Source: Bacteroidota bacterium
GTDB taxonomy: Bacteria; Bacteroidota; Bacteroidia; Chitinophagales; Chitinophagaceae
Length of the DNA: 64,000 nt
Reading direction: 5' to 3'
NCBI GenBank assembly: GCA_040385725.1
Contig: JAZKGV010000194.1
Span: 21,900-85,899 of the forward strand
In this document: in pieces, positions 2 to 47,964 of the stretch
Position numbering within the stretch: position 1 is the first letter of the stretch
Layout of the letters: each line of letters begins with the position of its first letter
Translations under genes and position numbers: made by a program
The notes under the pieces: generated by a model
The model's input: only the letters and a program-made list of their open reading frames with translations
What the model was told of the DNA's origin: nothing
Database searches by the model: none

Positions 2-1117
2 ATTGGCGGCGAACAACAACGCATTACCATTACAGGCAAATCAAAAACAAAAATTACAACTACAAATGCTGTAACAGAAGAAAGTGAAATAAAAGTTGCT
101 GGCAGCAATAAGCAGATCAAAAAGATAAAAGGCAAATTAAAAGCACAACAGGCCAATGGCGAAGCTGAAGAACTTATAGCAGTAAACAATAACGAAAAAA
201 CAAACAACAATGAATCAATTATACCTACGGAAGAAAAAGAAGAACCTGCAGCAACGCAGGAAAAAGAAATAATTGCTGCAAAAACTGTCGATGTAAAACC
301 TGCGCCAGTTATAGAAGAAAAGAAAACAACAGCAATTGAAGCAAACAAAACAGACAATAAAAAAACAAGCCCGGTTGTTGCAAAAAAAGCCGTAAAAAAA
401 CATTGGTTTTTTGAAGCAGGTGCCATCCCATTGATTGCTGCATCGCAGTATAATGAAAACAGTTCTTTTTACCGTAACCATGTTGTAAACAACAGTGTTT
501 CTGTTTATAAGGCCAATCTTGTAAATGCATCCATTGAGCCGGCTGTTGCTTTCTCATTATTAATACGCAGGGAAGTAAGTAAAAAAATTGCCGTGGGCAC
601 AGGGCTGCAGTATATGTTGCTGAAAGAAAATATGAGCATAGAAGGAAAAGAAACCAATACCACTTATGCTTTTGTTGACAGGCTGGTAAATGGCCAGTTA
701 GTGCCTGATACAATAGCAACAATTACAGAAGGAGCAAGAGCTATTTCTGCCGTAAACAGCTACCAGCTGTTTAGCATACCGCTGTTTGTGCAATACAGCA
801 TTATTCAAAAACCCAAATGGAGTCTTGACGCTGTTGGCGGCCTTTATTTTAATATCAGCGGCAACTATAAAAATGAAATAAACCGCAATGCAGCAGCGCC
901 ATTGCTTGCGGCTCCCGGCACCACAAACAAAAGCAATACCGGCATGGACCTATTTGCCGGCATACGCATTGGCAAAAAGCTAAGCAAACGACTCGACTTT
1001 TTTGCCATGCCCTCTATGCGGTGGAGCCTTGCTAAATACAATGTAAAAAACAGTTTGCTGGATAAAAATATTAACCAGGCTGGAATAGGATTTGGTTTGG
1101 GTTATAAGATCAATTAA
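2..1117 (+). CDS. 5'-partial outer-membrane beta-barrel protein (PorT-like) with long low-complexity N-terminal linker
   Basis: Frame is open from position 2 (IGGEQQRITITG...), not only from 431. About 140 aa rich in K/E/T/N/A precede amphipathic beta-strands (HWFFEAG..., IPLFVQY, GGLYFNI, GIGFGLGYKIN). Confidence 0.75.
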   Translation: MGGEQQRITITGKSKTKITTTNAVTEESEIKVAGSNKQIKKIKGKLKAQQANGEAEELIAVNNNEKTNNNESIIPTEEKEEPAATQEKEIIAAKTVDVKPAPVIEEKKTTAIEANKTDNKKTSPVVAKKAVKKHWFFEAGAIPLIAASQYNENSSFYRNHVVNNSVSVYKANLVNASIEPAVAFSLLIRREVSKKIAVGTGLQYMLLKENMSIEGKETNTTYAFVDRLVNGQLVPDTIATITEGARAISAVNSYQLFSIPLFVQYSIIQKPKWSLDAVGGLYFNISGNYKNEINRNAAAPLLAAPGTTNKSNTGMDLFAGIRIGKKLSKRLDFFAMPSMRWSLAKYNVKNSLLDKNINQAGIGFGLGYKIN

Positions 1118-1129
1118 AAAATTACTGCG

Positions 1130-3853
1130 ATGAGATACTTTTTTACTGCTGCGATCTTGATGATTGCCCTGTTTGCAAAGGGCCAGATTGTGAATATACC
1201 GGATAGTAATTTTAAATGGAAATTGCTTAACTACCAATCCACCAACTTAAGCCTGCCAACTAATTACATTGATGCAAATAACGATGGCGAAATACAGGAA
1301 ACTGAAGCTCTTGCCATTACCGGTTTAGATTTATATAATGACCCTTCCAACCAAGGCTCTGCCGATCGCCCTATCCGTGACCTTACAGGAATAAAGTCAT
1401 TCAATAATTTAAGACGACTGAATTTAACAGCAAATGCGGTTCATAATATTGACCTTTCAAATATGATTAACCTTGACACTATAGTAACATCTCGAAACTC
1501 GATATTTAATATCAATTTGAATGGGTGTCATAATCTTAAAACAGTTAATCTTACCAACGAACCTGCCACAGCACTAATACTACATGATATGCCAAATTTA
1601 GCAGTAGTATTTTTAGCAAATGGCATTGATGACATGCAATACATAAGTATCAAAAATTGCCCGGCGCTAAATTATATTGCATGGCCTAATTTCAACGGCC
1701 TTACACATGGTTTAGTAGAACTTTCAAATGCAGCGTTGGAAAGTATTAGTGGCATTCCGTATGGCTTTACTGCCAACACAACAGTCATGTTAGATAACAT
1801 GTCAAGGCTAAAGACTTTTAATGTTTATCCGAGTATCGACTCTTTAATAATAAAGAATTGTGATAGCCTTGTCTCTATAGACGATCAGGCTTTTGGTGCA
1901 CAGGTTAATTATATTAAGGTAGATAATTGCCGAGAGTTAACAAGAATAGGTTTCTTTCAATATACAGGGGAATCACTTGACATTATAAATTGTCCCAAAC
2001 TATCCCTTTTGGGAAACAATAATTCATGGGCACCAAATCTTAAGTCGTTAAATATAAAAAATGGAATATTTACCGAATTCAGTATTCCATCTGTTCCAAG
2101 TCTTAGATATATATGTGCAGATGAAAGTGAAATAATAAATACAATCAATAAGCTGGCTGCCCATCCCTGGAACACAAACTTTACTGTGAACTCTTATTGT
2201 TCTTTTATTCCAGGTGGAACATATAATACGATTAAAGGAAATACAAGAGTGGATATAAATAATAATGGCTGCGATAGCAGTGATAGAAACATTAAAAATG
2301 TACTGGTAAAACTGACAGACACAACCGGGCAAACTTATGTTACTTCCTCAAATGAAGAAGGGAAATACTCAGTTTATACATACAAGGGAAACTTTACGTT
2401 AAGCCCATATTTTGCTTATCCGTATTTTTCAATTAATCCCTCCTCGGAAAATCTTCGCTTTGATACAGCTAACAATTTAATAGCTATAAGAGACTTCTGC
2501 ATCCAACCCAATGGCACTCACAACGATTTAGAAATTACTTTTCTCCCAACATGGCCCGTTGCAAGACCTGGTTTTGATGCCGCCTACACTTTAGTGTACA
2601 GAAACCGTGGCACCACCACTCTATCCGGAAATGTTGCTGTAAACTTCGATAACAGTAAAATTAATTTTGTTTCTGCTTCTGAAAATGTTGCTACACAAAA
2701 CACAGGACAATTAACTTGGAACTACAATAACCTGCAACCCTTTGAAAGCAAAACTATCAATGTAACTTTTAACTTATTGCCACCGCCGGTTAATAATATT
2801 GGTGATACAATTATTTTCTTATCAGCCATCACGCCTTCAGCAAATGATGAAACTGCTTTTGATAACAGCTTTATTCTTCCACAAACAGTAATTGGTTCTT
2901 TTGATCCGAATGACAAACAATGCCTTGAAGGAAGCAAAATCGATATTTCTAAAATTGGTGAATACCTGCATTACCAAATACGTTTTCAAAATGAAGGGAC
3001 AGATACAGCGTTCAATATTGTTGTAGCTGATATATTAAGTGATAAATTAGACTGGAACAGTTTTGAATTTATTGGCAGCAGCCACACTGCTGATGTAAAA
3101 CTTACCAATAACAAACTGGAATTTATTTTCCAGAACATCAATCTTCCTTACAAAGCAATTGATGAACCCGGCAGCAATGGCTGGATAGCGTTTAAAATAA
3201 AACCAAAACCTTCTGTTGTAATTGGTGATTCTTTAAACAATAACGCTGCTATTTATTTTGATTTTAATTTACCGGTGATAACAAATACTGCCACAACAAT
3301 TGTTTCATCGGCTTCAACTCCTGTTCCTGTTAAGCTGGAGTATTTTTCTGTAAACAAAAAAGAAAATACCAATCAACTCAATTGGAAAGCCAGTTGCACT
3401 TATGGCAACGCTGCATTTATAATTGAAAGAAGTGATGATGGAATAAATTTTAAATCCATTGGAAATATAAATGCTACAGCAGTGCGTTGCCAATTGCCTT
3501 TCAATTTTACTGATAACAATCCTGTAGCAGGTAAAAATTATTACCGCTTAAAAATTACTGACGCTGATGGAAAAAGTTTTTATAGCAAAACATTGGTTGT
3601 TGGAAATGGCAAAGCCGGAATTGAAATTACTGCTGTTGCAAACAACATTGTTTATCTCAGCAGTAATAAACAGCAAACAGTAACTATGAAAATAATTGCT
3701 ACAGATGGAAGAGCAATATTAAATCAAAAGCAAACTGTTGGCGCTGGCAGTAACAACATCAGTTTGCAAATGAAAAGTGCAGCAAAAGGAATTTATACTT
3801 TGATTGTATATACTGAAGAAGGAGGAATGATCACTAAAAGATTTCTAAAATAA
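1130..3853 (+). CDS. T9SS type A sorting domain protein, LRR + Ig-like (DUF7619-like) modules; paralogue 1
   Basis: Signal peptide, IPDxNFK cap, DxNxDGEI motif, DLTGIxxFxNL LRRs, YCSFxPGG junction, GSFDPNDK, PVPVKLEYF module, C-terminal TKRFLK sorting-domain ending. Confidence 0.88.
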   Translation: MRYFFTAAILMIALFAKGQIVNIPDSNFKWKLLNYQSTNLSLPTNYIDANNDGEIQETEALAITGLDLYNDPSNQGSADRPIRDLTGIKSFNNLRRLNLTANAVHNIDLSNMINLDTIVTSRNSIFNINLNGCHNLKTVNLTNEPATALILHDMPNLAVVFLANGIDDMQYISIKNCPALNYIAWPNFNGLTHGLVELSNAALESISGIPYGFTANTTVMLDNMSRLKTFNVYPSIDSLIIKNCDSLVSIDDQAFGAQVNYIKVDNCRELTRIGFFQYTGESLDIINCPKLSLLGNNNSWAPNLKSLNIKNGIFTEFSIPSVPSLRYICADESEIINTINKLAAHPWNTNFTVNSYCSFIPGGTYNTIKGNTRVDINNNGCDSSDRNIKNVLVKLTDTTGQTYVTSSNEEGKYSVYTYKGNFTLSPYFAYPYFSINPSSENLRFDTANNLIAIRDFCIQPNGTHNDLEITFLPTWPVARPGFDAAYTLVYRNRGTTTLSGNVAVNFDNSKINFVSASENVATQNTGQLTWNYNNLQPFESKTINVTFNLLPPPVNNIGDTIIFLSAITPSANDETAFDNSFILPQTVIGSFDPNDKQCLEGSKIDISKIGEYLHYQIRFQNEGTDTAFNIVVADILSDKLDWNSFEFIGSSHTADVKLTNNKLEFIFQNINLPYKAIDEPGSNGWIAFKIKPKPSVVIGDSLNNNAAIYFDFNLPVITNTATTIVSSASTPVPVKLEYFSVNKKENTNQLNWKASCTYGNAAFIIERSDDGINFKSIGNINATAVRCQLPFNFTDNNPVAGKNYYRLKITDADGKSFYSKTLVVGNGKAGIEITAVANNIVYLSSNKQQTVTMKIIATDGRAILNQKQTVGAGSNNISLQMKSAAKGIYTLIVYTEEGGMITKRFLK
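2789..3231 (+). repeat. 443-bp tract nearly identical to 5391-5833
   Basis: Read by eye: only 2 mismatches (2839-2840); 2841-3231 appears 100% identical to 5443-5833. Confidence 0.9.
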
Positions 3854-3875
3854 CCTAACTACAAAATTAACTGCA

Positions 3876-6455
3876 ATGAAAACCTTTATCACTTTCCTAT
3901 TACTTGCAACTGCTTTATTTACTAAAGCGCAAATTGTAAATATTCCAGATGCAAATTTTAAAGTCGCTCTCATCAACTTGGGCATCGATACAAATAATGA
4001 TGGTGAGATACAGCAAACAGAAGCAGATGTCGTGACAACGTTAGATATTGATTCTTTGGACTTAAGAGATTTAACCGGTATCCGCTCCTTTACCAACCTT
4101 AAAACGCTATACTGCTCCGCTAATAAACTGCGAATATTTGATATTTCTGGTCATACAAATATTGAGTCAATTAATATTCGCCGATATTTTAGTTTTGATA
4201 ACGATACAGGTATGGCTGTATTCAACGCAGAAAATTGTATAAGGCTAAAAACTGTAGACTTATCAACTCCAAACTGGCCAACACTTTATACGGCACTTAT
4301 GGCAAACCTGGTTAATTGTGACAGCCTTACCAGCATTAACTTATCCTTATGTCCTGTTGCAATTTTAGACGTCAGCGGATCAGGCATAAAACATTTAGGG
4401 GTATGGCAAGTAGGTACTCTAATTGCAAAAAATTGCACTTCACTAATCTCGATTGTACCAGACCAGAGCCTGACAGGGGGAATAGGAACTGTAGATGTGA
4501 CAGGTTGTACAAATCTTGAAAGCCTCTCCTATGGGGAAGCTGGATCGGTACAAACGATTGATCTAAGCACTTGCCCTAATATCAAAACAGTATTTGTTCC
4601 TTATACCTCTGTCAGCCCTCTTTATGTCAATTTGAAAAATGGTACCCGTATGGATAATTTTAGTGTAGGTATAATACCGTGGAATGGTTCCATACCTGTT
4701 CTCAATATTTGTGCTGATGATTTTGAAACAGACTCTGCCAGCAACTGGTTGCAGTTTGTAAATATGCACAATAATCCCCTTACTAATATCAATTCTTACT
4801 GTAGTTTCTTTCCCGGTGGAAGCTTTAATTCAATTTCAGGTAATATAAGGGTTGATATAGATAATAATGGCTGCGATAGTACAGACAATGTAGCGGATAA
4901 TTGTTTAATCAGGTTTTCAAGTACATCTGAACAAACATATATTACATCTGCCAACTATCAGGGAAAATTTAAAGCATATACCTACAAAGGAGATTTTACC
5001 CTAACCCCTTATTTTCCATATCCATATTTCACTATTAATCCATCATCAGAAAGTGTCATTTTTGATACTGCTAATAGCTTAACAGCAACAAGAAATTTTT
5101 GCATCACTCCCAATGGCATTCATAATGATGTAGAAATAATTTTTCTTCCCACCTTCCCACCAGCAAGACCGGGTTTTGATGCTGCTTATACCTTAGTTTA
5201 CAAAAACCGTGGCACCACCACTCTATCCGGAAATGTTGCTGTAAACTTTGACAACAGTAAAATGAATTTTGTTTCCGCTTCTGAAAATGTTACCCCACAA
5301 AGTTCAGGACAGTTATTATGGAACTACAACAATCTGCAACCTTTTGAAAGTAAAACAATCAATGTAACTTTTAACTTACTGCCTCCGCCAGTTAATAATA
5401 TTGGTGATACAATTATTTTCTTATCAGCCATCACGCCTTCCACAAATGATGAAACTGCTTTTGATAACAGCTTTATTCTTCCACAAACAGTAATTGGTTC
5501 TTTTGATCCGAATGACAAACAATGCCTTGAAGGAAGCAAAATCGATATTTCTAAAATTGGTGAATACCTGCATTACCAAATACGTTTTCAAAATGAAGGG
5601 ACAGATACAGCGTTCAATATTGTTGTAGCTGATATATTAAGTGATAAATTAGACTGGAACAGTTTTGAATTTATTGGCAGCAGCCACACTGCTGATGTAA
5701 AACTTACCAATAACAAACTGGAATTTATTTTCCAGAACATCAATCTTCCTTACAAAGCAATTGATGAACCCGGCAGCAATGGCTGGATAGCGTTTAAAAT
5801 AAAACCAAAACCTTCTGTTGTAATTGGTGATTCATTGAACAACAGCGCAGCTATCTATTTTGATTTTAATTTACCTGTTATAACAAATACTGCCACAACG
5901 ATTGTTACCTCTTCTTCTACACCTGTGCCTGTTAAGTTGGAATATTTTTCTGCAAACAAAAAGGAAAATACCAATCAACTTAATTGGAAAGCCAGTTGTA
6001 CTTATGGCAATGCTGCATTTGTAATTGAAAGAAGTGATGATGGAATAAATTTTAAAGCCATTGGAAATATAAATGCTACAGCAGTGCGTTGTCAATTGCC
6101 TTTTAATTTTAGTGATAACGATCCTGCGGCTGGTAAAAATTATTACCGCTTAAAAATTACAGATGCTGATGGAAAAAGTTTTTATAGTAAAGTTTTAGTT
6201 GTTGGTAATAATAAAGCTGGCATAGAAATTACTGCGGTTGCAAACAACACTGTTTATCTCAGCAGTAATAAACAACAAACAGTAATAATGAAAGTAATTA
6301 CTGCGGATGGAAGAGAAGTATTAAATCAAAAACAAACTATTGGTACCGGAAACAATAATATCAATTTGCTAATGAAAAATGCGGCGAAAGGAATTTATAG
6401 TTTAATTATTTGCACAGAACAGGGAGAACCAATTACAAAGAGATTTATAAAATAG
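3876..6455 (+). CDS. T9SS LRR protein; paralogue 2
   Basis: Same architecture as paralogue 1; ends TKRFIK. Confidence 0.88.
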   Translation: MKTFITFLLLATALFTKAQIVNIPDANFKVALINLGIDTNNDGEIQQTEADVVTTLDIDSLDLRDLTGIRSFTNLKTLYCSANKLRIFDISGHTNIESINIRRYFSFDNDTGMAVFNAENCIRLKTVDLSTPNWPTLYTALMANLVNCDSLTSINLSLCPVAILDVSGSGIKHLGVWQVGTLIAKNCTSLISIVPDQSLTGGIGTVDVTGCTNLESLSYGEAGSVQTIDLSTCPNIKTVFVPYTSVSPLYVNLKNGTRMDNFSVGIIPWNGSIPVLNICADDFETDSASNWLQFVNMHNNPLTNINSYCSFFPGGSFNSISGNIRVDIDNNGCDSTDNVADNCLIRFSSTSEQTYITSANYQGKFKAYTYKGDFTLTPYFPYPYFTINPSSESVIFDTANSLTATRNFCITPNGIHNDVEIIFLPTFPPARPGFDAAYTLVYKNRGTTTLSGNVAVNFDNSKMNFVSASENVTPQSSGQLLWNYNNLQPFESKTINVTFNLLPPPVNNIGDTIIFLSAITPSTNDETAFDNSFILPQTVIGSFDPNDKQCLEGSKIDISKIGEYLHYQIRFQNEGTDTAFNIVVADILSDKLDWNSFEFIGSSHTADVKLTNNKLEFIFQNINLPYKAIDEPGSNGWIAFKIKPKPSVVIGDSLNNSAAIYFDFNLPVITNTATTIVTSSSTPVPVKLEYFSANKKENTNQLNWKASCTYGNAAFVIERSDDGINFKAIGNINATAVRCQLPFNFSDNDPAAGKNYYRLKITDADGKSFYSKVLVVGNNKAGIEITAVANNTVYLSSNKQQTVIMKVITADGREVLNQKQTIGTGNNNINLLMKNAAKGIYSLIICTEQGEPITKRFIK
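5391..5833 (+). repeat. Second copy of the 443-bp tract (offset 2602 bp)
   Basis: See 2789-3231. Confidence 0.9.
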
Positions 6456-6483
6456 CTGATAATAATATATAAAACTTACTGCA

Positions 6484-9021
6484 ATGAAAACTTTTATCAT
6501 TTCCCTATTGCTTGTAGCCGCTTTGTTTACTAAAGCACAAATTGTAAATATACCTGATGCAAATTTTAAAAATTATTTGTTACAATATTCTCCTGCCATT
6601 GATATAAACAATGATAATGAAATACAGGTTACTGAAGCCGCTGCAGTTGGCCGTTTACTTATTTACGAATCTGTAAACAATCAAATGATCGCTTCTCTGG
6701 TGGGGCTTGAATCATTTAGCAACCTGACCTACCTTGAAACCTACACAAGGGTGCCGGTTATAAATACTGCCGGTTTAAATAATTTAAAAGAATACAGGGT
6801 TGGCGGTTATGTTAATACCCTTGACCTAACAGGATGTTTTAATTTAGAAAACCTTAATGTAGGGTGTGACAGTTTAACCACTTTAGATATCAGCCCCTGT
6901 GCAAACCTTAAAGAATTAATTGTTGGCTATAACCTTCGTCTTACTAATATTATTAAGGCCACACATGACAGTTTGAAAGTGGCAACTATTTATTACAATA
7001 ACAGTTTAAGGCAAATTGATTTCAGCAATCTTCACAATCTTTTACAGTTACATATTACAACTGATTGGCCTTTAGAACGGTTAAATGTTGACGGCTGTAA
7101 TGCCCTGCAGTATTTATCTATAACCGGCGGTCCCCCTATAACACCATTAAATACACTGGATCTAAGTTCCTGCTATAACTTACTGCATTTTGGTGCCAAT
7201 TACTTTCGCATCAATTATCTGAACGTAAAAAACGGAAGCTCTTTTATAGGCTTTACTTACGACTTCAACAATTCAGTAGAAATATGCGCCGATGAATTTG
7301 AGATACAGGATTTACAGCAACGGTTTATGTTTAATTTAATGACGCCTCCGCCTATTACTTCTTACTGTACATTTTTTCCTGGAGGCAATTACAATACCAT
7401 TAAAGGCAAAACAAGAATTGACTTTAATAATGATGGCTGCGACAGTACAGACAGGGTGATGCAGCAGGTAGCCATAAAAATCCAGGACACTTCTGGTAAT
7501 TCATTGATAAGATACACTGCACAATCCGGCGATTATGCACATTATTCATACAAAGGCAACTTCACTCTTACCCCTTATTTTCCGTATCCATATTTTATTG
7601 TAAACCCGGCAAGCGTCAACGTTTTATTTGATTCGGCAAATAACCTGGTATCTACAAAAGATTTCTGCATACAACCAAACGGCACTCACAACGACCTGGA
7701 AATAAGTTTTCTGCCCACATTATCACCTGCAAGGCCTGGCTTTAATGCTGCTTATACTTTGATTTATAAAAACCGGGGCACCACTACTTTGTCAGGAAAT
7801 GTTGCTGTCAATTTCGATAATAATAAAATGAATTTTGTTTCTGCTTCTGAAAATGTTACCACACAAAGTTCGGGACAGTTATTGTGGAACTACAATAACC
7901 TGCAGCCTTTTGAAACCAAAACCATCGATGTAACTTTTAATTTGCTACCGCCGCCGGTGAACAATATTGATGATACAATTTCTTATTTAGCAGTTATCAC
8001 TCCATCAGATAATGATGAAACTGCCTTTGATAATATTTTTATTCTTCCACAAAGAGTAGTTGGAAGTTTTGACCCTAACGATAAACAATGTATCGAAGGA
8101 AGTAAACTGGACATCAGTAAGATTGGTGACTATCTCCATTATCAAATACGTTTTCAAAATGAAGGAACAGATACTGCTTTTAATATTGTAGTGGTAGATA
8201 CATTGAGTGATAAATTGGATTGGAACAGTTTTGAGTTTATCAGCAGCAGTCATTCTTGTAATCCAACACTTAAAAACAACAAAGCAGAATTCATTTTTGA
8301 AAACATCAACCTTCCTTACAAAGCCATTGATGAACCCGGAAGTAATGGCTGGGTAGCTTTTAAAATAAAACCCAAACCTTCTGTTGTTATTGGTGATTCA
8401 TTAAACAACAGCGCTGCTATTTATTTTGATTTTAATTTACCAGTAATAACAAATACTGCTACAACAATTGTTACCTCTTCTTCCACGCCGGTTCCTGTTA
8501 AGCTGGAATATTTTTCAGTAAATAAAAAAGAAAATACCAATCAACTGAATTGGAAAGCCAGTTGTACTTACGGCAATGCTGCATTTGTAATTGAAAGAAG
8601 TGATGATGGTATTCATTTTAAAGCCATTGGAAATATTAATACTACTGCATTGCGTTGCCAGTTGCCTTTCAACTTTACAGATAACAACCCTGCGGCTGGT
8701 AAAAATTATTACCGGTTAAAAATTACGGATGCTGATGGAAAAAGTTTTTACAGCAAAATAGTGGTTGTTGGAAATAACAAAGCTGGTATTGAAATTACCG
8801 CTGTGGCAAATAATACTGTTTATCTCAACAGCAACAAGCAGCAAATAATACAATTGAAAGTGATCGCTGCCGATGGAAAAGAAATTGTAAACCAAAAGCA
8901 AATTTTTACAGCAGGAACTAATAGTATCAGTTTGCAAACGGCAAATACAGCCAAAGGCATTTACACCATTATCATCTATACAAATGATGGTAGCAGCATC
9001 ACCCATCGGTTTATTAAATGA
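6484..9021 (+). CDS. T9SS LRR protein; paralogue 3
   Basis: Same architecture; ends THRFIK. Confidence 0.88.
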   Translation: MKTFIISLLLVAALFTKAQIVNIPDANFKNYLLQYSPAIDINNDNEIQVTEAAAVGRLLIYESVNNQMIASLVGLESFSNLTYLETYTRVPVINTAGLNNLKEYRVGGYVNTLDLTGCFNLENLNVGCDSLTTLDISPCANLKELIVGYNLRLTNIIKATHDSLKVATIYYNNSLRQIDFSNLHNLLQLHITTDWPLERLNVDGCNALQYLSITGGPPITPLNTLDLSSCYNLLHFGANYFRINYLNVKNGSSFIGFTYDFNNSVEICADEFEIQDLQQRFMFNLMTPPPITSYCTFFPGGNYNTIKGKTRIDFNNDGCDSTDRVMQQVAIKIQDTSGNSLIRYTAQSGDYAHYSYKGNFTLTPYFPYPYFIVNPASVNVLFDSANNLVSTKDFCIQPNGTHNDLEISFLPTLSPARPGFNAAYTLIYKNRGTTTLSGNVAVNFDNNKMNFVSASENVTTQSSGQLLWNYNNLQPFETKTIDVTFNLLPPPVNNIDDTISYLAVITPSDNDETAFDNIFILPQRVVGSFDPNDKQCIEGSKLDISKIGDYLHYQIRFQNEGTDTAFNIVVVDTLSDKLDWNSFEFISSSHSCNPTLKNNKAEFIFENINLPYKAIDEPGSNGWVAFKIKPKPSVVIGDSLNNSAAIYFDFNLPVITNTATTIVTSSSTPVPVKLEYFSVNKKENTNQLNWKASCTYGNAAFVIERSDDGIHFKAIGNINTTALRCQLPFNFTDNNPAAGKNYYRLKITDADGKSFYSKIVVVGNNKAGIEITAVANNTVYLNSNKQQIIQLKVIAADGKEIVNQKQIFTAGTNSISLQTANTAKGIYTIIIYTNDGSSITHRFIK
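8380..8489 (+). repeat. 110-bp tract identical to 11092-11201
   Basis: TCTGTTGTTATTGGTGATTC...TCTTCCACGCC read identically in paralogues 3 and 4. Confidence 0.85.
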
Positions 9022-9057
9022 GGTATCTTTATTAATCTACTTTAAACCAAGAAACTC

Positions 9058-11730
9058 ATGAGAAAGTTTTTAACCGTTCTGCTCCTATTCAGTTCGGCAA
9101 TTATAAAAGCACAGGTAGTAAATATTCCTGACCAGGTTTTTCTCCGCAATTTGATAAGTGCCGGGGTGGACATTAATGCTGATGGGCAGATACAACAGAG
9201 TGAAGCGCTTACAGTAACGTATCTCCACCTTGCTTGTTATTCCCTGTGTACAGGGTGTCAGTACCAGCCAGTAAGTGACCTGACCGGGATTCAGGCATTT
9301 ATCAATTTGCAAACTTTAATGATTGAGAGCGATTGTTCAGGTTCAACCTTTGAAGGAATTAACTATCTCAACTTAAGTGGCCTCTCTAACCTTAAAAATG
9401 TAAGTGTTTTGGATGACGCCCCTTTGAGAAAGATTAACCTGGCAGGTTGTACCGGGTTGGAAACATTGTCAATTTCAATTTCTAGTGATGCTAATTCAGG
9501 AGGAACTCCTGATACAATTGATCTTCGCAGTTGTACAAACATAAATTATGTTTATTTAAAGGATGTCGTTTTTAATGTATTGAATGCAGAAAATTGCGCC
9601 AATTTGAGAAAATTGGAATTCTTAGGAACAAATTATAATGGAATTCTTCAGACGATCAACATACACAATGCAGTAAATCTGGAGTATTTTATCGCTCCTG
9701 CTTCATTCGGATGGCTGAATATAGACTTTAGCAACTTACCCAGGTTGAGAAGAATAAATATAGATCCATACGAATTGGCAGACGCTAATTTTACAGGCTG
9801 TACTTCACTGGATACTGTGGATATTGGCTGGAATACCTATACAAAAAGCATCCTTGATTTTAGTACTTGCCCAAGGCTTAAACATTTAAATATAGGTTTT
9901 TGGTCGTCTGGTTCTTCTTTAAAATTCCTTAATATTAAAAATGGCAGCAGTTTAAATACTTTTACAACTCCCACTAATTACGGCACATTTACAACAGTAT
10001 GTGCAGATGATTTTGAAGCAGCGTCAATAAGAACATACCTGGCGGCTCACAATAATCCAACCACTCATGTTTATTCCTACTGTTCTTTCTATCCTGGTGG
10101 TAATTATAACACTATTACGGGCAAACTAAGGATCAATGATAACAATAATGGCTGCGATAACAGTGACAGGCAATTGGTAAATATTCCTGTAAAATTCACA
10201 GATACAACGGGCCAGTCTGTAACGGTATTTTCTAATAATACAGGAGATTATTCTGTTTACACATACAAAGGGCTGTTCAGTTTTGCACCCTATTTGCCGT
10301 ACCCATATTTTACTATAAACCCGGCTAACCCTGTTGTAAGTTTTGATACAGCCAACAGCCTTGTCAACACAACAAATTTCTGCCTCCAGCCAGATGGCGT
10401 TCACAATGACCTTGAAATAAATTTTCTCCCCGGAAGAGCTTCAAGGCCAGGCTTTAATGCCACTTATATTTTAACTTATAAAAATCGTGGTAATACCACA
10501 CTCTCAGGTTCGGCCACACTTAATTTTGATAACAGTAAAATGAATTTTATTAATGCGTCTGTACCGGTTACTATCCAAAATACAGGACAGTTGGTGTGGG
10601 ATTATAATAACCTGTTGCCTTTAGAAACGAAAACAATGTATGTTACTTTTTATTTATTACCCCCGCCAATAAATAATATCAATGATACCATTTATTATTT
10701 AGCCACCATTACTCCTTCAGCAAATGATGAAACAGCTTTTGACAATAGTTTCATTCTTCCGCAAAGGTTAACAGGCTCTTATGATCCAAATGATAAACAA
10801 TGTCTCGAAGGAAGTAAACTCGACATCAGTAAGATTGGTGATTACATTCATTATCAAATACGTTTCCAAAATGAAGGAACAGATACTGCATTTAATGTTG
10901 TGGTAGCAGATACGTTAAGTGATAAACTGGACTGGAGTACATTTGAATTTACTGCCGGCAGCAATACATGCAATGCAAAACTTACCAATAATAAAGCAGA
11001 GTTCTTTTTCCCGGATATAAACCTTCCTCATAAAGCCATTGATGAACCAGGAAGTAATGGATGGGTTTCATTTAAAATAAAGCCTAAGCCATCTGTTGTT
11101 ATTGGTGATTCATTAAACAACAGCGCTGCTATTTATTTTGATTTTAATTTACCAGTAATAACAAATACTGCTACAACAATTGTTACCTCTTCTTCCACGC
11201 CAGTGCCTGTTAAACTGGAATATTTTTCTGTAAACAAAAAAGAAAATACCAATCAACTGAACTGGAAAGCAAGCTGTACTTATGGTAATGCAACTTTTGC
11301 AATTGAAAGAAGTGATGATGGTAATCATTTCACCAGTATTGGAAATATCAGTGCTACTGCGTTGCGTTGCCAGTTGCCTTTTAACTTTATTGATAACAAT
11401 CCTGTGGCAGGCAAAAATTATTACCGGTTGAAAATTACAGATGCTGATGGTGTTTCTTTTTACAGCAAAGTATTAGTTGTAGGAAATAATAAAGCTGGTA
11501 TAGAAATTACTGCTGTGGCAAACAATATTATTTATCTTAATAGTAATAAACAACAAACAGTAATAATGAAAGTAGTTACTGCGGATGGAAGAATAATCTA
11601 TAGCGGAAATAAAACGATAAATACTGGCAACAGCAATGTAAATTTATCAGTGAAAGAAGCTTCAGGAGTATATACATTGATTATTTATACAATGGATGGT
11701 AATGCTGTAATAAGGAAATATGTAAAGTAA
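9058..11730 (+). CDS. T9SS LRR protein; paralogue 4
   Basis: Same architecture; Cys-containing insert in the N-terminal cap; ends IRKYVK. Confidence 0.88.
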   Translation: MRKFLTVLLLFSSAIIKAQVVNIPDQVFLRNLISAGVDINADGQIQQSEALTVTYLHLACYSLCTGCQYQPVSDLTGIQAFINLQTLMIESDCSGSTFEGINYLNLSGLSNLKNVSVLDDAPLRKINLAGCTGLETLSISISSDANSGGTPDTIDLRSCTNINYVYLKDVVFNVLNAENCANLRKLEFLGTNYNGILQTINIHNAVNLEYFIAPASFGWLNIDFSNLPRLRRINIDPYELADANFTGCTSLDTVDIGWNTYTKSILDFSTCPRLKHLNIGFWSSGSSLKFLNIKNGSSLNTFTTPTNYGTFTTVCADDFEAASIRTYLAAHNNPTTHVYSYCSFYPGGNYNTITGKLRINDNNNGCDNSDRQLVNIPVKFTDTTGQSVTVFSNNTGDYSVYTYKGLFSFAPYLPYPYFTINPANPVVSFDTANSLVNTTNFCLQPDGVHNDLEINFLPGRASRPGFNATYILTYKNRGNTTLSGSATLNFDNSKMNFINASVPVTIQNTGQLVWDYNNLLPLETKTMYVTFYLLPPPINNINDTIYYLATITPSANDETAFDNSFILPQRLTGSYDPNDKQCLEGSKLDISKIGDYIHYQIRFQNEGTDTAFNVVVADTLSDKLDWSTFEFTAGSNTCNAKLTNNKAEFFFPDINLPHKAIDEPGSNGWVSFKIKPKPSVVIGDSLNNSAAIYFDFNLPVITNTATTIVTSSSTPVPVKLEYFSVNKKENTNQLNWKASCTYGNATFAIERSDDGNHFTSIGNISATALRCQLPFNFIDNNPVAGKNYYRLKITDADGVSFYSKVLVVGNNKAGIEITAVANNIIYLNSNKQQTVIMKVVTADGRIIYSGNKTINTGNSNVNLSVKEASGVYTLIIYTMDGNAVIRKYVK

Positions 11731-11796
11731 TCCGTGAAGTTAGTAAGCAGGCGATCGACAGAAATAGTTATATTAGCATTAATAAACTATAGTTTT

Positions 11797-13356
11797 ATGA
11801 AACCCTTCCTTACAACTTTATTCCTTTTCCTGGCATTGGTTTCACAAGCCCAGGTTATAAACATTCCCAATACAGCTTTTAAAAGACAATTATTATATAC
11901 CTACGACACAGATCACAATGGAGAACTGGAACAGTCAGAAGCGCTTGCTATCCGGAATTTGTATGTTGGTTGTTATCTTGTAAGTAGCGGAGGAGAATTT
12001 TTCAGTTATGCTGTTTCAGATTTAACAGGGATAGAGCATTTTACAAACCTTGAACGACTAACAATTGCTGGCACTTGTTCCGGGGGCGGAGGGGTTGAAT
12101 ATCCGAATCTCAGTGGCCTTTCAAATCTTACATACCTTTCCATCGGCGATGCAGACCGTTTGAGCAAAATCAACCTTACTGGTTGCATCAAACTGGATTC
12201 TCTTATTATAGGCGGCTCAGACTACGGCAATCCAAGCCCTCTTGATACACTTGATCTGAATAGCTGTACCAGTTTAAGATATGTAAACCTTTACTTTCTT
12301 TTTCACTTTAAAAAATTGATTGTTGACAGTTGTATTAATTTAAAGGAACTATACCTAAGCCAAATGTTTGGTGAAAGCTTAGACCTTAGCCATTTGGTTA
12401 GCCTTGAAAAACTTGGGGTAACAGATGCTTACAATAATATCAATTTGAATTGTTCCAATCTCACTCAACTAAAAACTGTAGACGTTATCACAGGCGACCT
12501 TGCAGACATACAATTCACCGGTTGTACAAATCTTGAAAGGGTTCTTGTTGATGCCGGTACTTTCCCTTCTTCATACTTAGACTTCAGCAGTTCGCCTAAC
12601 CTTACAAATTTGATACTGAATCTTTACTACAATCCCCCATCTCAGTTTTCCAACCTTAGATTGCTAAATCTTAAAAACGGAAGCCGTCTGAATCAATTCT
12701 TTTTTTCTGCCTCTCTCAATATACAACAGGTTTGTGCCGATGATTTTGAAGTTGATACTTTGCAACAGTATTTTATTAATGACAACCAAAATGTGAATGT
12801 AACTTCTTCCTGTTCTTTATTCCCTGTTCCTGTTAAGCTTGAATATTTTTCTGCAAACAAAAAAGAAAATACCAATCAACTGAACTGGAAAGCAAGTTGT
12901 ACTTATGGCAATGCCGCATTTGTAATTGAAAGAAGCAATGACGGTATTCATTTCAACAGTATTGGAAATATTAATGCTACAGCATTGCGTTGCCAATTGC
13001 CTTTCAATTTTACAGACAATAATCCGGTGTCTGGTAAGAATTATTACCGGTTAAAAATTACGGATTCTGATGGGAAAAGTTTTTACAGTAAAATTTTAGT
13101 TGTTGGTAATAGCAAAGCTGGCATAGAAATTATTGCAGTTGCCAACAATACGGTTTATTTTAACAGCAGTAAGCAACAAACTGTACAGTTAAAACTAATT
13201 GCAAGTGATGGAAAGGAAATACTGAGTCAAAAACAAAATATCACTTCGGGCAATAACAGTATTAATCTACAAATAAAAAATACAGCTAAAGGAATATATA
13301 CTTTGATTGTTTATACAAAAGAAGGAGAAACAATCACAAAAAGGTTTATGCAATAA
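11797..13356 (+). CDS. T9SS LRR protein; paralogue 5, lacking the central Ig-like/DUF7619-like modules
   Basis: ATG at 11797 gives signal peptide MKPFLTTLFLFLALVSQA. The LRR region joins directly to PVPVKLEYF; ends TKRFMQ. Confidence 0.85.
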   Translation: MKPFLTTLFLFLALVSQAQVINIPNTAFKRQLLYTYDTDHNGELEQSEALAIRNLYVGCYLVSSGGEFFSYAVSDLTGIEHFTNLERLTIAGTCSGGGGVEYPNLSGLSNLTYLSIGDADRLSKINLTGCIKLDSLIIGGSDYGNPSPLDTLDLNSCTSLRYVNLYFLFHFKKLIVDSCINLKELYLSQMFGESLDLSHLVSLEKLGVTDAYNNINLNCSNLTQLKTVDVITGDLADIQFTGCTNLERVLVDAGTFPSSYLDFSSSPNLTNLILNLYYNPPSQFSNLRLLNLKNGSRLNQFFFSASLNIQQVCADDFEVDTLQQYFINDNQNVNVTSSCSLFPVPVKLEYFSANKKENTNQLNWKASCTYGNAAFVIERSNDGIHFNSIGNINATALRCQLPFNFTDNNPVSGKNYYRLKITDSDGKSFYSKILVVGNSKAGIEIIAVANNTVYFNSSKQQTVQLKLIASDGKEILSQKQNITSGNNSINLQIKNTAKGIYTLIVYTKEGETITKRFMQ

Positions 13357-13381: not shown

Positions 13382-13414
13382 AACAACCGATGTTTTTTAA
13401 ACTTCGGTTGTTTT
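13382..13414 (+). terminator. Probable intrinsic terminator after the LRR array
   Basis: AACAACCGA...TCGGTTGTT inverted repeat followed by Ts. Confidence 0.5.
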
Positions 13415-13434: not shown

Positions 13435-14508
13435 ATGAAGATAAATGAGGTTGCTTACCTTTACCCCATGCGCTTCTCTCACATACCGAATGCAGCTGTA
13501 AGCAATAATAACGACCGGCCCATGATGCAGAAAGAAGTGTATCCTGTAAGCACTGCCCTGCAACAATACCTTCAGCAATATAAAAAAGACACAGCGCTTC
13601 CTGTTGCATATACAGAACTGCTGCATTACGAATACACCAATGCCATTAAAGATGACAAAGGCAAACACATCCATTGGGAAAGAGTGGTGTACAGCAAAAA
13701 ATTACTGGCTGAACTAAAACAAAAACTATCGCTCTTATATACGCTGTTAAAAAAAGAAGGAGACATCCAGATCGACTCCATAGATTTTTGTGAATACGCC
13801 AACAGCATGCCTTTCCGCATCAATATCACCCATACAAAAAATAATCAACCCGATCTGTTCTATATCAAATCAGCCGATGCTTCCAGGATTTACGGGCTGG
13901 AACTGGAGCAACTGCTCACCAAAAACCACATCAATTTTTTGTATCACCAAAACACCCTGGTGGAAGAACATATTGATGGCATACCCGGCGATAACTTTCT
14001 GGAAACGGTGAATGAATTAAAGGAAGAAGAAAAGAAATTACTGGCTGAAGCCTTTATAAGTTTTAATGAAAGCTGTTTTGCAAGATTGCTGGGTGATATG
14101 CGTAGCTACAATTTTGTGGTGGTAAAAAACAACAATGCTCAAAACCCTTTTACCATTAAAGCCATTGATTTTGACCAGCAGTGTTATGAAGGCAAACTCA
14201 ATTTATACCTGCCGCAGTTTTATAAAGAGAACTACCAATATGTACAATTGGCCACTTCATTATTAAGTGATGTAAGCATTGATGCAATAAGAATGGCAGA
14301 GAGAAAAGAGCTGGTCGGGCATTTTATCAACAACAAACAACAGTTAATTGCCCTGCTGCAGGTGATGGAAAAAGAGGAGATATCCGAACAGTACAAAGTG
14401 GTTTCCTTACGCAAAGAGTTGAACCAGTACCACCACACCCAGCATTTCAGCGCCTGCCACACTATGGGCAGCCTGGTAAGGCATCAACTGGAGCAAATGC
14501 TTGGTTAA
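13435..14508 (+). CDS. Hypothetical protein with protein-kinase-like motifs
   Basis: Ordered motifs [28 protein letters not shown]. Confidence 0.65.
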
Positions 14509-46310: not shown

Positions 46311-46814
46311 CTACAGGCCAGCCTTTAACTCCTGCAAAAAGCCTTTCAGTTTTTTCAACGAATCAATAGCGGCAAATTTTTCTTCGGATCTTTTATTATT
46401 CTTAATAAAGTCTTTGGCGCCTTCAAGGGTATATTTCTTTTCTCTTGTAAGGTGGTGTATCAGTTGGATATTCTTTACATCTTCCGGGCGGAAAAGCCTG
46501 TCGCCCTTACCATTCTTTTTTGGCTTCAGCACATCAAATTCGTTTTCCCACAATCTTAATAGGGAGGGGTTTACCTTAAACCAGGTAGCCACTTCACCTA
46601 TTGAATAATACATTTTCTGGTACAATATTTCATCTTCCGGCACTTCCACCTGGCCAACTGTTTCACTTAGCTCTTTAATGCTCTTTCTTCCCCTTGTTGA
46701 TTTTATCTTTTCTACAACTGGCGGCGGTACCACCGTTTTCTTTTTTGCAACAGGTTTTTTTGCCGGCGCTTGTTTCGCCGGTTCGTCAAATGCAAATAGT
46801 GATGTTTGTTTCAA
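46311..46814 (-). CDS. MerR family transcriptional regulator
   Basis: YYSIGEVA, SLLRLWENEF, KPKKNGKGDRLF, YTLEGAK; TTG start. Confidence 0.9.
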   Translation of the reverse strand: MKQTSLFAFDEPAKQAPAKKPVAKKKTVVPPPVVEKIKSTRGRKSIKELSETVGQVEVPEDEILYQKMYYSIGEVATWFKVNPSLLRLWENEFDVLKPKKNGKGDRLFRPEDVKNIQLIHHLTREKKYTLEGAKDFIKNNKRSEEKFAAIDSLKKLKGFLQELKAGL

Positions 46815-46833
46815 GTCTCTCTTTTTTCAAATA

Positions 46834-46841
46834 CAAAAATA
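46834..46841 (-). promoter_or_regulatory. -7 box for the MerR gene
   Basis: Reverse complement reads TATTTTTG. Confidence 0.45.
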
Positions 46842-46887
46842 AACAAGTACAATTTAGTTAACATCCTAATCTTTTGTGCAAAACATT

Positions 46888-46909
46888 TCCCCCTTTAGGG
46901 GATAGGGGC
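46888..46909. repeat. CCCCTTTAGGGG-type REP-like palindrome
   Basis: TCCCCCTTTAGGGGATAGGGGC directly after the M23 stop codon. Confidence 0.75.
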
Positions 46910-46910
46910 G

Positions 46911-47882
46911 TTAATCAAAACTTTTGGCACTTCCGGTTGCTGCTATCTTCAGCATCCTGTCATACTGTTCTGCATTCAGGTCATTAAAGAAAAAGTAAAC
47001 AGGGTCAACAGGGTGTTTGTTAATATGAACTTCATAATGAAGATGCGGCCCTGTACTGGCACCAGTGCTGCCCACCCAGCCAATCACTTCACCACGTTTT
47101 ACCTGCTGCCCCACCCTTGCTTTCACCCTCACCATATGCATGTACACTGTTTCGTATCCATACCCGTGATTGATGATAACATGATTTCCGGTTCCGGTTC
47201 CCGGGCCTGCCATGGTAACACGGCCATTGCCCGTTGCATAAATAGGTGTGCCCTGCGGCGCTGTAAAATCAAGCCCGTTATGCATTTTAGGAATAGCATA
47301 AATCGGGTGGATACGCATACCAAAACCGCTGGCCACCCTCGATAGGTCTTTATTACTCACAGGCTGTATGGCAGGAATGCTGGAGATCTTTACATCCTGG
47401 TTCTTTATCAGGTTTTCTATGGTATCATAACTGTTGCGCTGGTACGAGATCCTGGCGCTGATATTATTCAGTTGCGAAGTAATATCATGGCTCAGCTCAT
47501 TATCATTCTGCACATTTACCTTTTCAAATTCTTTTGATTTTTCCACCAGTTTGGCCCTTGCACTATCGGGCAATGGGTTGGCTTCAAAAATAGAACGGTA
47601 CACATCATTGTCCCTCTTCTCCAGTTCATCCATCTCCTGTTCCAGTGTTTGTAATTTAGCCGACAGTTTGTTGTAATCCTCCGAGATCATCCGTATGCGT
47701 TCATTCGCAAATTTGTCCTTCGGTTTGGGAATGAATTTGGTGTACACCCAGATAACCATGCCAGCCGTCACCAAAAAAGCACTGATAAATCCAAATAACC
47801 GCAGCAGCTTCACCCGTAGAGGTGTCACCAGTTTTTCGTACCGGAGCGTATTGGTGTTATAGAAATATTTTATTTTTTTCAT
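46911..47882 (-). CDS. M23 family metallopeptidase (NlpD/MepM-like)
   Basis: KMHNGLDF, YMHM, GPHLHYEV. Confidence 0.93.
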   Translation of the reverse strand: MKKIKYFYNTNTLRYEKLVTPLRVKLLRLFGFISAFLVTAGMVIWVYTKFIPKPKDKFANERIRMISEDYNKLSAKLQTLEQEMDELEKRDNDVYRSIFEANPLPDSARAKLVEKSKEFEKVNVQNDNELSHDITSQLNNISARISYQRNSYDTIENLIKNQDVKISSIPAIQPVSNKDLSRVASGFGMRIHPIYAIPKMHNGLDFTAPQGTPIYATGNGRVTMAGPGTGTGNHVIINHGYGYETVYMHMVRVKARVGQQVKRGEVIGWVGSTGASTGPHLHYEVHINKHPVDPVYFFFNDLNAEQYDRMLKIAATGSAKSFD

Positions 47883-47964
47883 GCTTTGCAGCCAGGGATG
47901 GTTTTACAAAATATCAGATCTTAATTTTTTTGTACCAGGCTTTAGTGCTGCTATTGAACTTCAT

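Follow-up and report, generated by a model that had tools for sequence, protein, structure and literature searches.

A tandem family of five internalin-like, T9SS-type surface-protein genes in an uncultured freshwater Ferruginibacter, probably evolving by birth and death and by conversion of the stalk

How can neighbouring genes encode proteins that share their ends and their supporting stalk and hardly resemble one another in the part predicted to bind a ligand? This question is raised by five genes at positions 1130-13356 of a 64,000-nt stretch of DNA (G000:C194:21900-85899; hereafter the window, meaning the whole of that stretch). The stretch belongs to G000, a metagenome-assembled genome (MAG) of 336 contigs and 91% completeness. 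The five open reading frames (ORFs) are paralogous and lie on the + strand. We consider it likely that they form a tandem family of internalin-like surface-protein genes, exported by the T9SS (type IX secretion system) of an uncultured freshwater Ferruginibacter, and that the family evolves by birth and death together with gene conversion of the stalk. This reading is based on the architecture of the proteins, the secretion machinery of the genome, conversion tracts, discordant trees and copy-number variation, all of which were observed.

Architecture of the five genes

The features of the array are listed below; SP denotes the signal peptide, LRR the leucine-rich repeats and CTD the C-terminal domain.

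1130..3853, + strand: g1, 907 aa
1130-1327, + strand: g1, SP and cap (aa 1-66)
1328-2191, + strand: g1, LRR (aa 67-354)
2192-2509, + strand: g1, D1, CnaB/SdrD_B-like (aa 355-460)
2510-2899, + strand: g1, D2, DUF11 (aa 461-590)
2900-3313, + strand: g1, D3, DUF7619 (aa 591-728)
3314-3619, + strand: g1, D4 (aa 729-830)
3620-3850, + strand: g1, T9SS CTD (aa 831-907)
3876..6455, + strand: g2, 859 aa, g1-type architecture
6484..9021, + strand: g3, 845 aa, g1-type architecture
9058..11730, + strand: g4, 890 aa, g1-type architecture
11797..13356, + strand: g5, 519 aa from ATG 11797, with SP and cap, LRR, D4 and CTD only
~12820..12834, + strand: g5 deletion junction, TTC CCT GTT CCT GTT (F P V P V)

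The proteins are built, in order, of a signal peptide ending in (A/G)-Q, a cap with the sequence QIVNIPDxNFK, an LRR head with a cysteine ladder, a stalk of beta-sandwich domains (D1 to D4) and a T9SS type A tail. All five N-termini show M(K/R)xF, a hydrophobic stretch and (A/G)Q followed by IVNIPD, which was read by eye from the sequence as a Sec signal peptide. In Pfam/NCBIfam searches DUF7619 was matched in g1-g4 at E 1e-51 to 1e-55, and DUF11 was matched in the same genes. LRR_EndoS exceeds the Pfam cut-off in g1 and g4 and falls slightly below it in g2, g3 and g5. D1 is assigned as CnaB/SdrD_B-like from a weak Pfam match, and D4 is an unnamed beta domain.

The longest ORF of g5 opens at GTG 11734. 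Since a start at ATG 11797 yields a signal peptide matching those of the other four genes (MKPFLTTLFLFLALVSQAQVINIPN), the latter is taken as the real start. Counted from there, the intergenic gaps are 22, 28, 36 and 66 bp, in agreement with the original prediction of five same-strand paralogues spaced 22-66 bp apart. The same prediction named an ACTGC(A/G)ATG context for three starts, and this is present at g1 (TTACTGCGATG), g2 (TAACTGCAATG) and g3 (TTACTGCAATG), whose common form is (T/A)ACTGC(A/G)ATG; g4 (AAACTCATG) and g5 (AGTTTTATG) deviate from it. A constant stalk, expected in all five paralogues, is complete in g1-g4 and not in g5, which is not full length and has lost D1-D3 in frame (~376 codons). 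Its junction, SSCSLFP/VPVKLEYF, fuses an ...SYCSFFPGG... site with a ...TPVPVKLEYF site, and TTCCTG/CCTG microhomology exists at both sites in the full-length copies.

A profile was built from 20 members of the family. Its match to Listeria InlJ (3bz5), over cap and LRR, has an E of 1.8e-27, with profile positions 23-191 aligned to InlJ residues 15-176; InlA, InlK, InlB and InlH give weaker matches. In an AlphaFold2 (AF2) model of g2, two cap helices (residues 26-34 and 47-51) come first. After them, residues 55-279 (pLDDT 60-92) contain 19 short strands, which form a solenoid of about ten 22-24-residue units with one strand per 11 residues, and beta-sandwich domains come next. Foldseek with the whole g2 model returned tandem immunoglobulin (Ig)/fibronectin type III (FN3) arrays and InlA/InlB; the generic multi-Ig matches reach a TM-score of only 0.1-0.2, a consequence of the model being a flexible rod of several domains. 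Neither an LPXTG motif nor a GW module was found in the array proteins, which end in the T9SS tail. For these reasons, and since a CnaB/SdrD_B-like domain follows the LRR, we call the proteins internalin-like in a working sense and not strict members of the Listeria family.

That LRR heads sit on a conserved stalk as T9SS-type cargo, as originally proposed, is supported both by this architecture and by the secretion genes of G000, which encodes SprA (TIGR04189 1198, 841 and 317 bits, split across contigs) and PorV (NF033710 303 bits), all above cut-off. The tails of the array proteins are clearly homologous among themselves, and about 45 other ORFs of G000 have a similar D4+CTD tail. Each protein would be exported by the Sec pathway, the signal peptide probably being cleaved before the Gln of QIVNIPD. 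The CTD would then pass it to type IX secretion, and attachment to the surface is expected by analogy with other type A cargo. The beta-sandwich rod (CnaB-like D1, DUF11, DUF7619 and D4) would hold out the capped cysteine-ladder solenoid of about ten units, and the solenoid would bind a ligand. We thus infer that the array proteins are anchored at the surface and act as adhesins or receptors.

The CnaB/DUF11/DUF7619 stalk is a general display module in Ferruginibacter G000. Elsewhere in this genome, two neighbouring genes (C78:43735-45195 and 46549-47961) carry the same stalk with an LTSLPALP-type LRR and a QYVNIPDxNFR cap, and three further genes (C78:30569-31732, C333:2808-3899 and C81:2961-4070) combine it with a propeller-like head and a different C-terminus.

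Heads and stalks in the array and in related genomes

Among the five copies, the LRR regions are 39-49% identical in nucleotides and 20-38% in amino acids, the g4 head being nearest to that of g5 (38-40% aa). The corresponding values for D1 are 59-67% and 51-63%. Nucleotide identities are 71-88% in DUF11, 80-97% in DUF7619, 81-90% in D4 and 60-81% in the CTD; the signal peptide and cap are 52-72% identical. The proportion of synonymous differences (pS), calculated by the Nei-Gojobori method (NG86), is saturated in the LRR (0.70-0.88) and D1 (0.71-0.79), as it is over most of the signal peptide and cap. In D2-D4, the synonymous divergence (dS) is 0.13-1.2, with a nonsynonymous to synonymous ratio (dN/dS) of about 0.05-0.16. 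Protein constraint cannot lower synonymous divergence; the several-fold lower values in D2-D4 than in the LRR and D1 therefore indicate that the stalk has been homogenised. A per-domain comparison of identity and dN/dS had been suggested with the original prediction. It succeeded for the identities and for the stalk; the dN/dS of the heads is inestimable, because their synonymous sites are saturated both within G000 and in the best cross-genome pair. The same saturation points to ancient lineages and speaks against freshly diversified heads.

Conversion was examined by a Sawyer-type permutation of polymorphic sites, which gave the following tracts:

2841..3231, + strand: conversion tract in g1, matching g2 5443..5833 exactly over 391 nt, with 112 consecutive concordant polymorphic sites (p <= 0.0002)
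5443..5833, + strand: conversion tract in g2, partner of the g1 tract (permutation test)
8380..8489, + strand: conversion tract in g3, matching g4 11092..11201 exactly over 110 nt, with 17 concordant polymorphic sites (p <= 0.0002)
11092..11201, + strand: conversion tract in g4, partner of the g3 tract (permutation test)

A third significant pair is g2/g4 (p <= 0.0002). No conversion tract was detected in the LRR core, and the detected tracts, like the clustering of copies by genome, are confined to the constant parts, which are the stalk and, in the relative bin34, the signal peptide and cap. The constant stalk reflects gene conversion and not purifying selection alone. Ordinary RecA-type conversion between neighbours would repeatedly homogenise, within each genome, the D2-CTD stretch and, less strongly, the signal peptide and cap.

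Trees of the separate parts are discordant. In the head tree the genome label changes 17 times against a shuffled mean of 19.7, so that heads are not clustered by genome, and supported pairs join different genomes (g5/L036; g2/G005-C/bin34; G005-B/L033; L038/L039 several times). The D2D3 and D4CTD trees show 11 label changes against a shuffled mean of 18-19, none of 200 shuffles being as low, and the copies of L039, L038, bin34 and G005 each form one clade. The genes of bin34 are mosaic: a third gene has the first ~50 codons and the stalk in common with the others, and its LRR and D1 are only 32-66% identical to theirs in nucleotides. Taken together, the trees and this mosaic are best read as birth and death plus partial concerted evolution. 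Also in bin34, two adjacent genes (L037 308-2968 and 2992-5515) have LRR DNA that is 100% identical over ~1 kb and stalks that are 78-98% identical, which is either a very recent head duplication, or head-directed conversion, or assembly collapse.

The locus recurs in many Ferruginibacter/Chitinophagaceae genomes in the order lipoprotein (~600 aa), extracytoplasmic function (ECF) sigma factor, transmembrane (TM)/outer-membrane (OM)-barrel partner, array, unk357 and clpX. Most genomes of the same genus carry no array copy at all. The numbers of array genes, where present, are as follows:

L033, L035, L042 and L057: one gene
L036/G044: three genes, the first a pseudogene or a bad consensus
L038/G045: four genes
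bin34 (L037/L040): at least three genes
G005: at least four genes, split over four contigs
window: five genes
G041: seven genes

The module of L035, L042 and L057 is inserted between clpP2 on one side and unk357-clpX on the other, beside tig. In G011 (L051), clpP-clpP-unk357-clpX is contiguous, and the lipoprotein, ECF sigma, partner and LRR gene(s) are missing as a unit, suggesting that the module is an accessory island in a very conserved housekeeping cluster. The one to seven copies found among relatives probably arose by tandem duplication, deletion and pseudogenisation, and the head blocks (LRR+D1) would represent ancient, deeply diverged lineages common to several species.

The closest relative is L036. 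Its flanks are 91-92% identical to those of the window in nucleotides (flank dS 0.18-0.45), yet it has three genes. Homology between the two ends just past the g1 cap (window 1217) and returns in D4 of the last gene (12823). By blastn, no L036 head matches any window head; the best pair, g5 with the last L036 gene, is 51% identical in amino acids with a pS of 0.78. In the more distant G005 (flank dS 1.0-1.7), the sole recognisable head partner is that of g2, found in gene C at 40-46% aa; this head type also occurs in bin34 and in P0002/L057 (48%). The g2 head has 606 protein matches at E <= 1e-10, among them Flavobacterium proteins at 28-46% identity, many of which cover only part of the head. 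The nearest counterpart of the g2 head among 5.8 billion proteins is only 48% identical, so that an unsaturated head comparison, and with it a proper dN/dS, is impossible with public data. The first array gene of L036 (L036 7377-8303; genome G044) has a signal peptide and cap 97% identical to those of g1 in amino acids. Stops abound in every one of the six frames of its LRR part, where a check for inversion and for similarity to any head gave no more than faint traces of LRRs. Either the gene has decayed into a pseudogene, or the long reads gave a poor consensus across a region that varies between strains.

These comparisons bring up the possibility that heads move. One tentative idea is that the signal peptide/cap and the D2-CTD stalk serve as handles by which ancient LRR+D1 heads are shuffled, while the linked ECF sigma, partner and lipoprotein sense the envelope and set the expression of the array. 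If so, selection by phages, grazers or partner organisms would keep the pool diverse, which would amount to a bacterial trans-species polymorphism of surface receptors. Selected head swapping as such, in which the same two regions act as recombination handles, heads are exchanged within or between populations, and frequency-dependent selection (phages, grazers, hosts) maintains old head lineages as trans-species polymorphism, appears unlikely to us. The two abrupt boundaries of homology between the window and L036 agree with it, as do the sharp head boundaries of the bin34 mosaic, the head types held in common across species at 40-53% aa when flanks are far closer, and the co-segregation of D1 with the LRR in most cross-genome pairs. 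However, selection is not required for this pattern, which arises whenever conversion depends on identical seeds and the heads have diverged too far to recombine. Moreover, no near-identical head was found in two stalk or genome backgrounds, which would mark a recent swap directly, and the best match to the g2 head is the 48% one, and no excess change was seen on the predicted binding face. In the latter test, which is weak, identity within head types was 0.44 at concave-face positions versus 0.42 elsewhere (p 0.5), the motif parse having found only 3-7 repeats per head.

It is improbable that the genes are old static duplicates, i.e., ancient paralogues under purifying selection with a stalk merely more constrained than the head. 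The low dN/dS in the stalk and D1 (0.05-0.16), the age of the heads implied by saturated pS and the lack of any switching machinery found would suit such genes. Static duplicates are nevertheless hard to reconcile with the synonymous gap between the head/D1 and D2-D4 of the same genes, which protein constraint cannot explain, with the significant conversion tracts, with stalks that group by genome and heads that do not, with copy numbers from one to seven, and with a different gene set in the relative whose flanks are 91-92% identical; by these observations the explanation is already largely refuted. Since copy number varies in this way and no relative has near-identical heads, the locus is dynamic as originally predicted, and the static orthologous array that would have contradicted that view is not what relatives contain.

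Programmed variation, in which one expressed gene is rebuilt from donor cassettes as in lamprey variable lymphocyte receptors (VLRs), Neisseria pilE/pilS or Borrelia vlsE, is very improbable. The array does consist of related genes in tandem whose ends are constant and whose middle varies, and gene conversion occurs. However, none of the five copies is partial, every one having a start codon, a signal peptide and a tail of its own, and no partial head cassettes were found in genome G000; conversion was detected in the constant stalk and not in the LRR core; and the paralogous head DNA is only ~40% identical, too low for homologous exchange. At the locus there are no inverted repeats bracketing a promoter, no invertible elements and no recombinase; DNA repeats were found neither inside the LRR heads nor, as short tandem repeats, at the gene starts, and homopolymers of >= 7 are absent except for a T7 at 12700 inside g5. 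The resemblance to variable-LRR receptor systems that had been noted is thus not upheld. A diversity-generating retroelement (DGR) was considered as well and set aside: the genes examined around the array, in which no dedicated search was made, showed no reverse transcriptase, no template repeat and no C-type-lectin target. LRR solenoids are not the usual DGR target. The direction of DGR mutation is unreadable here, because the heads are saturated at synonymous and replacement sites.

The sole run containing the window sequence is a watershed metagenome at ~5x depth. The read-level data are Logan contigs and unitigs from this run, a resolution at which strain-level variants and recombinant joints are unreadable; the joints listed from Logan contigs are branch points of the graph, with 21-26 nt on each side. 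One unbranched Logan unitig of 443 nt (2789-3231) covers the g1/g2 tract at a depth of 10.6, compared with ~5-6 for unique LRR unitigs. The g1/g2 tract is therefore considered real, since two copies that are truly identical yield just this, one unbranched unitig with its depth doubled. This unitig has C, T and T at 2939, 2941 and 2974, inside the tract, where the window has A, C and C; the mismatches may be strain variation or a consensus difference between assemblers. That the array or its near-identical tracts are an artefact, with repeats collapsed or chimerised in a low-coverage short-read MAG, is hardly credible: the low depth, the doubled stalk depth and the three-letter disagreement would fit, but independent unitigs cross OMP-g1 (OMP, outer membrane protein), g2-g3, g4-g5 and g5-unk357 without differences from the window, the shared tract behaves as two identical copies should, and the same locus is present in the long-read MAGs L035, L036, L039 and L042 with 1-, 3- and 7-gene arrays.

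Several points weigh against birth and death with stalk conversion. The T9SS tail scores below the curated TIGR04183 cut-off (T9SS type A tail, 23 bits) in three of the five copies (g1 25.3, g3 23.8, g2 21.4, g5 21.2 and g4 16.4 bits), PF18962 gives 17.8-21.4 bits in all five against a Pfam cut-off of 27, and the stalk part of the g2 AF2 model is poor (pLDDT 25-60). No excess change was found at the predicted concave-face positions in the crude test described above. The view of the heads as ancient lineages rests on saturated synonymous sites, and a mutational process acting on all sites of the head would look alike. In a MAG of 336 contigs at ~5x, head-to-stalk joins inside the shared tracts could be mis-assembled, and the exact 391-nt identity may be overstated, given the unitig that differs at three letters. 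Finally, no RNA run contains the array locus.

Flanking module and transcription signals

The neighbouring features in the window are:

2..1117, + strand: 3' part of the gene for the membrane partner, a 491-aa protein (full gene G000:C194:21541-23016), ending 12 bp before g1
13382..13412, + strand: hairpin of two 14-nt inverted-repeat arms around a 3-nt loop, 26 bp past the g5 stop

The N-terminus of the partner is a cytoplasmic stub, a single TM segment serves as inner-membrane anchor, and a K/E/T-rich linker of ~230 residues leads to an OM beta-barrel-like C-terminus (PF13568, weak and under cut-off). Its start overlaps the stop of the ECF sigma gene (G000:C194:21081-21548), just upstream of the window. 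The sigma gene product contains Sigma70_r2 and r4_2 and scores 77.9 bits with TIGR02937 (cut-off 42.9). The sigma/partner pair also precedes the array in L033, L035, L036, L039, L042, G005 and L057, and the TM/OM-barrel partner is a putative anti-sigma or sigma-partner protein. It evolves fast, with 48% aa identity between G000 and G005, compared with 92% for ClpX. Lipoprotein, ECF sigma and partner always precede the array immediately and travel with it as one accessory module beside clpP/clpX. Downstream, unk357 (window 13435-14508) encodes 357 aa without a Pfam/NCBIfam match and always lies between the array and clpX. It adjoins clpP/clpX even where the array is absent, and a second copy in G000, on C65, is 42% identical.

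The hairpin at 13382-13412 is the sole one in the intergenic gaps of the array and is a possible operon terminator. No terminator-like site was found between the genes, scans for sigma-70-type promoters and terminators stayed at chance level, and the Bacteroidota -7 box TAnnTTTG is absent from every array gap. Gaps of 12-66 bp, the lack of this box within them and the lack of a terminator-like site before the hairpin past g5 hint at an operon. The genes g1-g5 are probably co-transcribed, perhaps with the ECF sigma and partner genes, and the transcript may begin at or before the sigma gene; both co-transcription and sigma control of the array are inferred.

Comparison with known systems

The array is an ordinary family of putative adhesin genes and not a new variation system. 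It provides a quantified example of how a T9SS-displayed adhesin family evolves in free-living Bacteroidota, with old heads kept apart, stalks and sorting tails homogenised, and whole arrays growing from a single gene to seven at one fixed position between clpP and clpX. A constant stalk is easily put down to protein constraint only, and the array corrects this view, gene conversion being involved as well. Further points of interest are that the head lineages are very old compared with the flanks, that the boundaries are cassette-like, that an ECF sigma module is constantly linked, and that an InlJ-like head occurs in a non-pathogen.

In Flavobacterium psychrophilum, the copies of a tandem LRR array closely resemble one another, the main difference being how many near-identical LRR units they contain. 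Such similarity fits the ~10-fold read pile-up described for that array (PMC8400371). Its copy number varies between strains (PMC8400371), and several of its proteins occur in the secretome, in amounts that are altered in gld mutants (PMC5682007). Compared with that description (PMC8400371), variable copy number is seen here too, with five genes in the window and 1, 3, 4, >= 4 and 7 at the same locus in relatives. The F. psychrophilum array (~15-23 consecutive genes) and that of the window both belong to Bacteroidota and consist of same-strand tandem LRR genes with TIGR04183 tails. In contrast, the window heads are only 20-38% identical and lack DNA-level repeats, the proteins carry a ~550-aa CnaB/DUF11/DUF7619/D4 stalk, and an ECF sigma module is attached to the array.

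The Listeria internalins, especially InlJ, share with the window proteins an N-terminal cap, a cysteine-containing LRR solenoid, Ig-like domains and a surface anchor. Internalins form a multigene family in tandem islets (inlGHE, inlC2DE) with recombination between members. However, Listeria is Gram-positive and uses an LPXTG or GW anchor, whereas the window proteins have a T9SS C-terminal domain suited to a Gram-negative outer membrane, other stalk domains, and a free-living freshwater host rather than a pathogen. The internalin islets are thus a functional analogue, and the window head is, judging by the profile match, homologous to that of InlJ.

Helicobacter babA/babB represent partial concerted evolution in adhesin paralogues. 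In mammalian TLR1/TLR6, conversion homogenises the non-binding part of LRR paralogues and the ligand-binding part stays diverged (PMC2077338). The partial homogenisation seen here is alike; the proteins and organisms are different, there are up to seven copies, and the head lineages are older than the species. Generic T9SS LRR proteins of Flavobacterium, Pedobacter, Aquimarina, Tenacibaculum, Aureispira and other genera have the same cap with an LRR_EndoS/LRR_4 head and a PF18962 tail. Most are 27-57% identical to the g2 head, many over part of it only, and are without the DUF11-DUF7619 stalk that g1-g4 carry.

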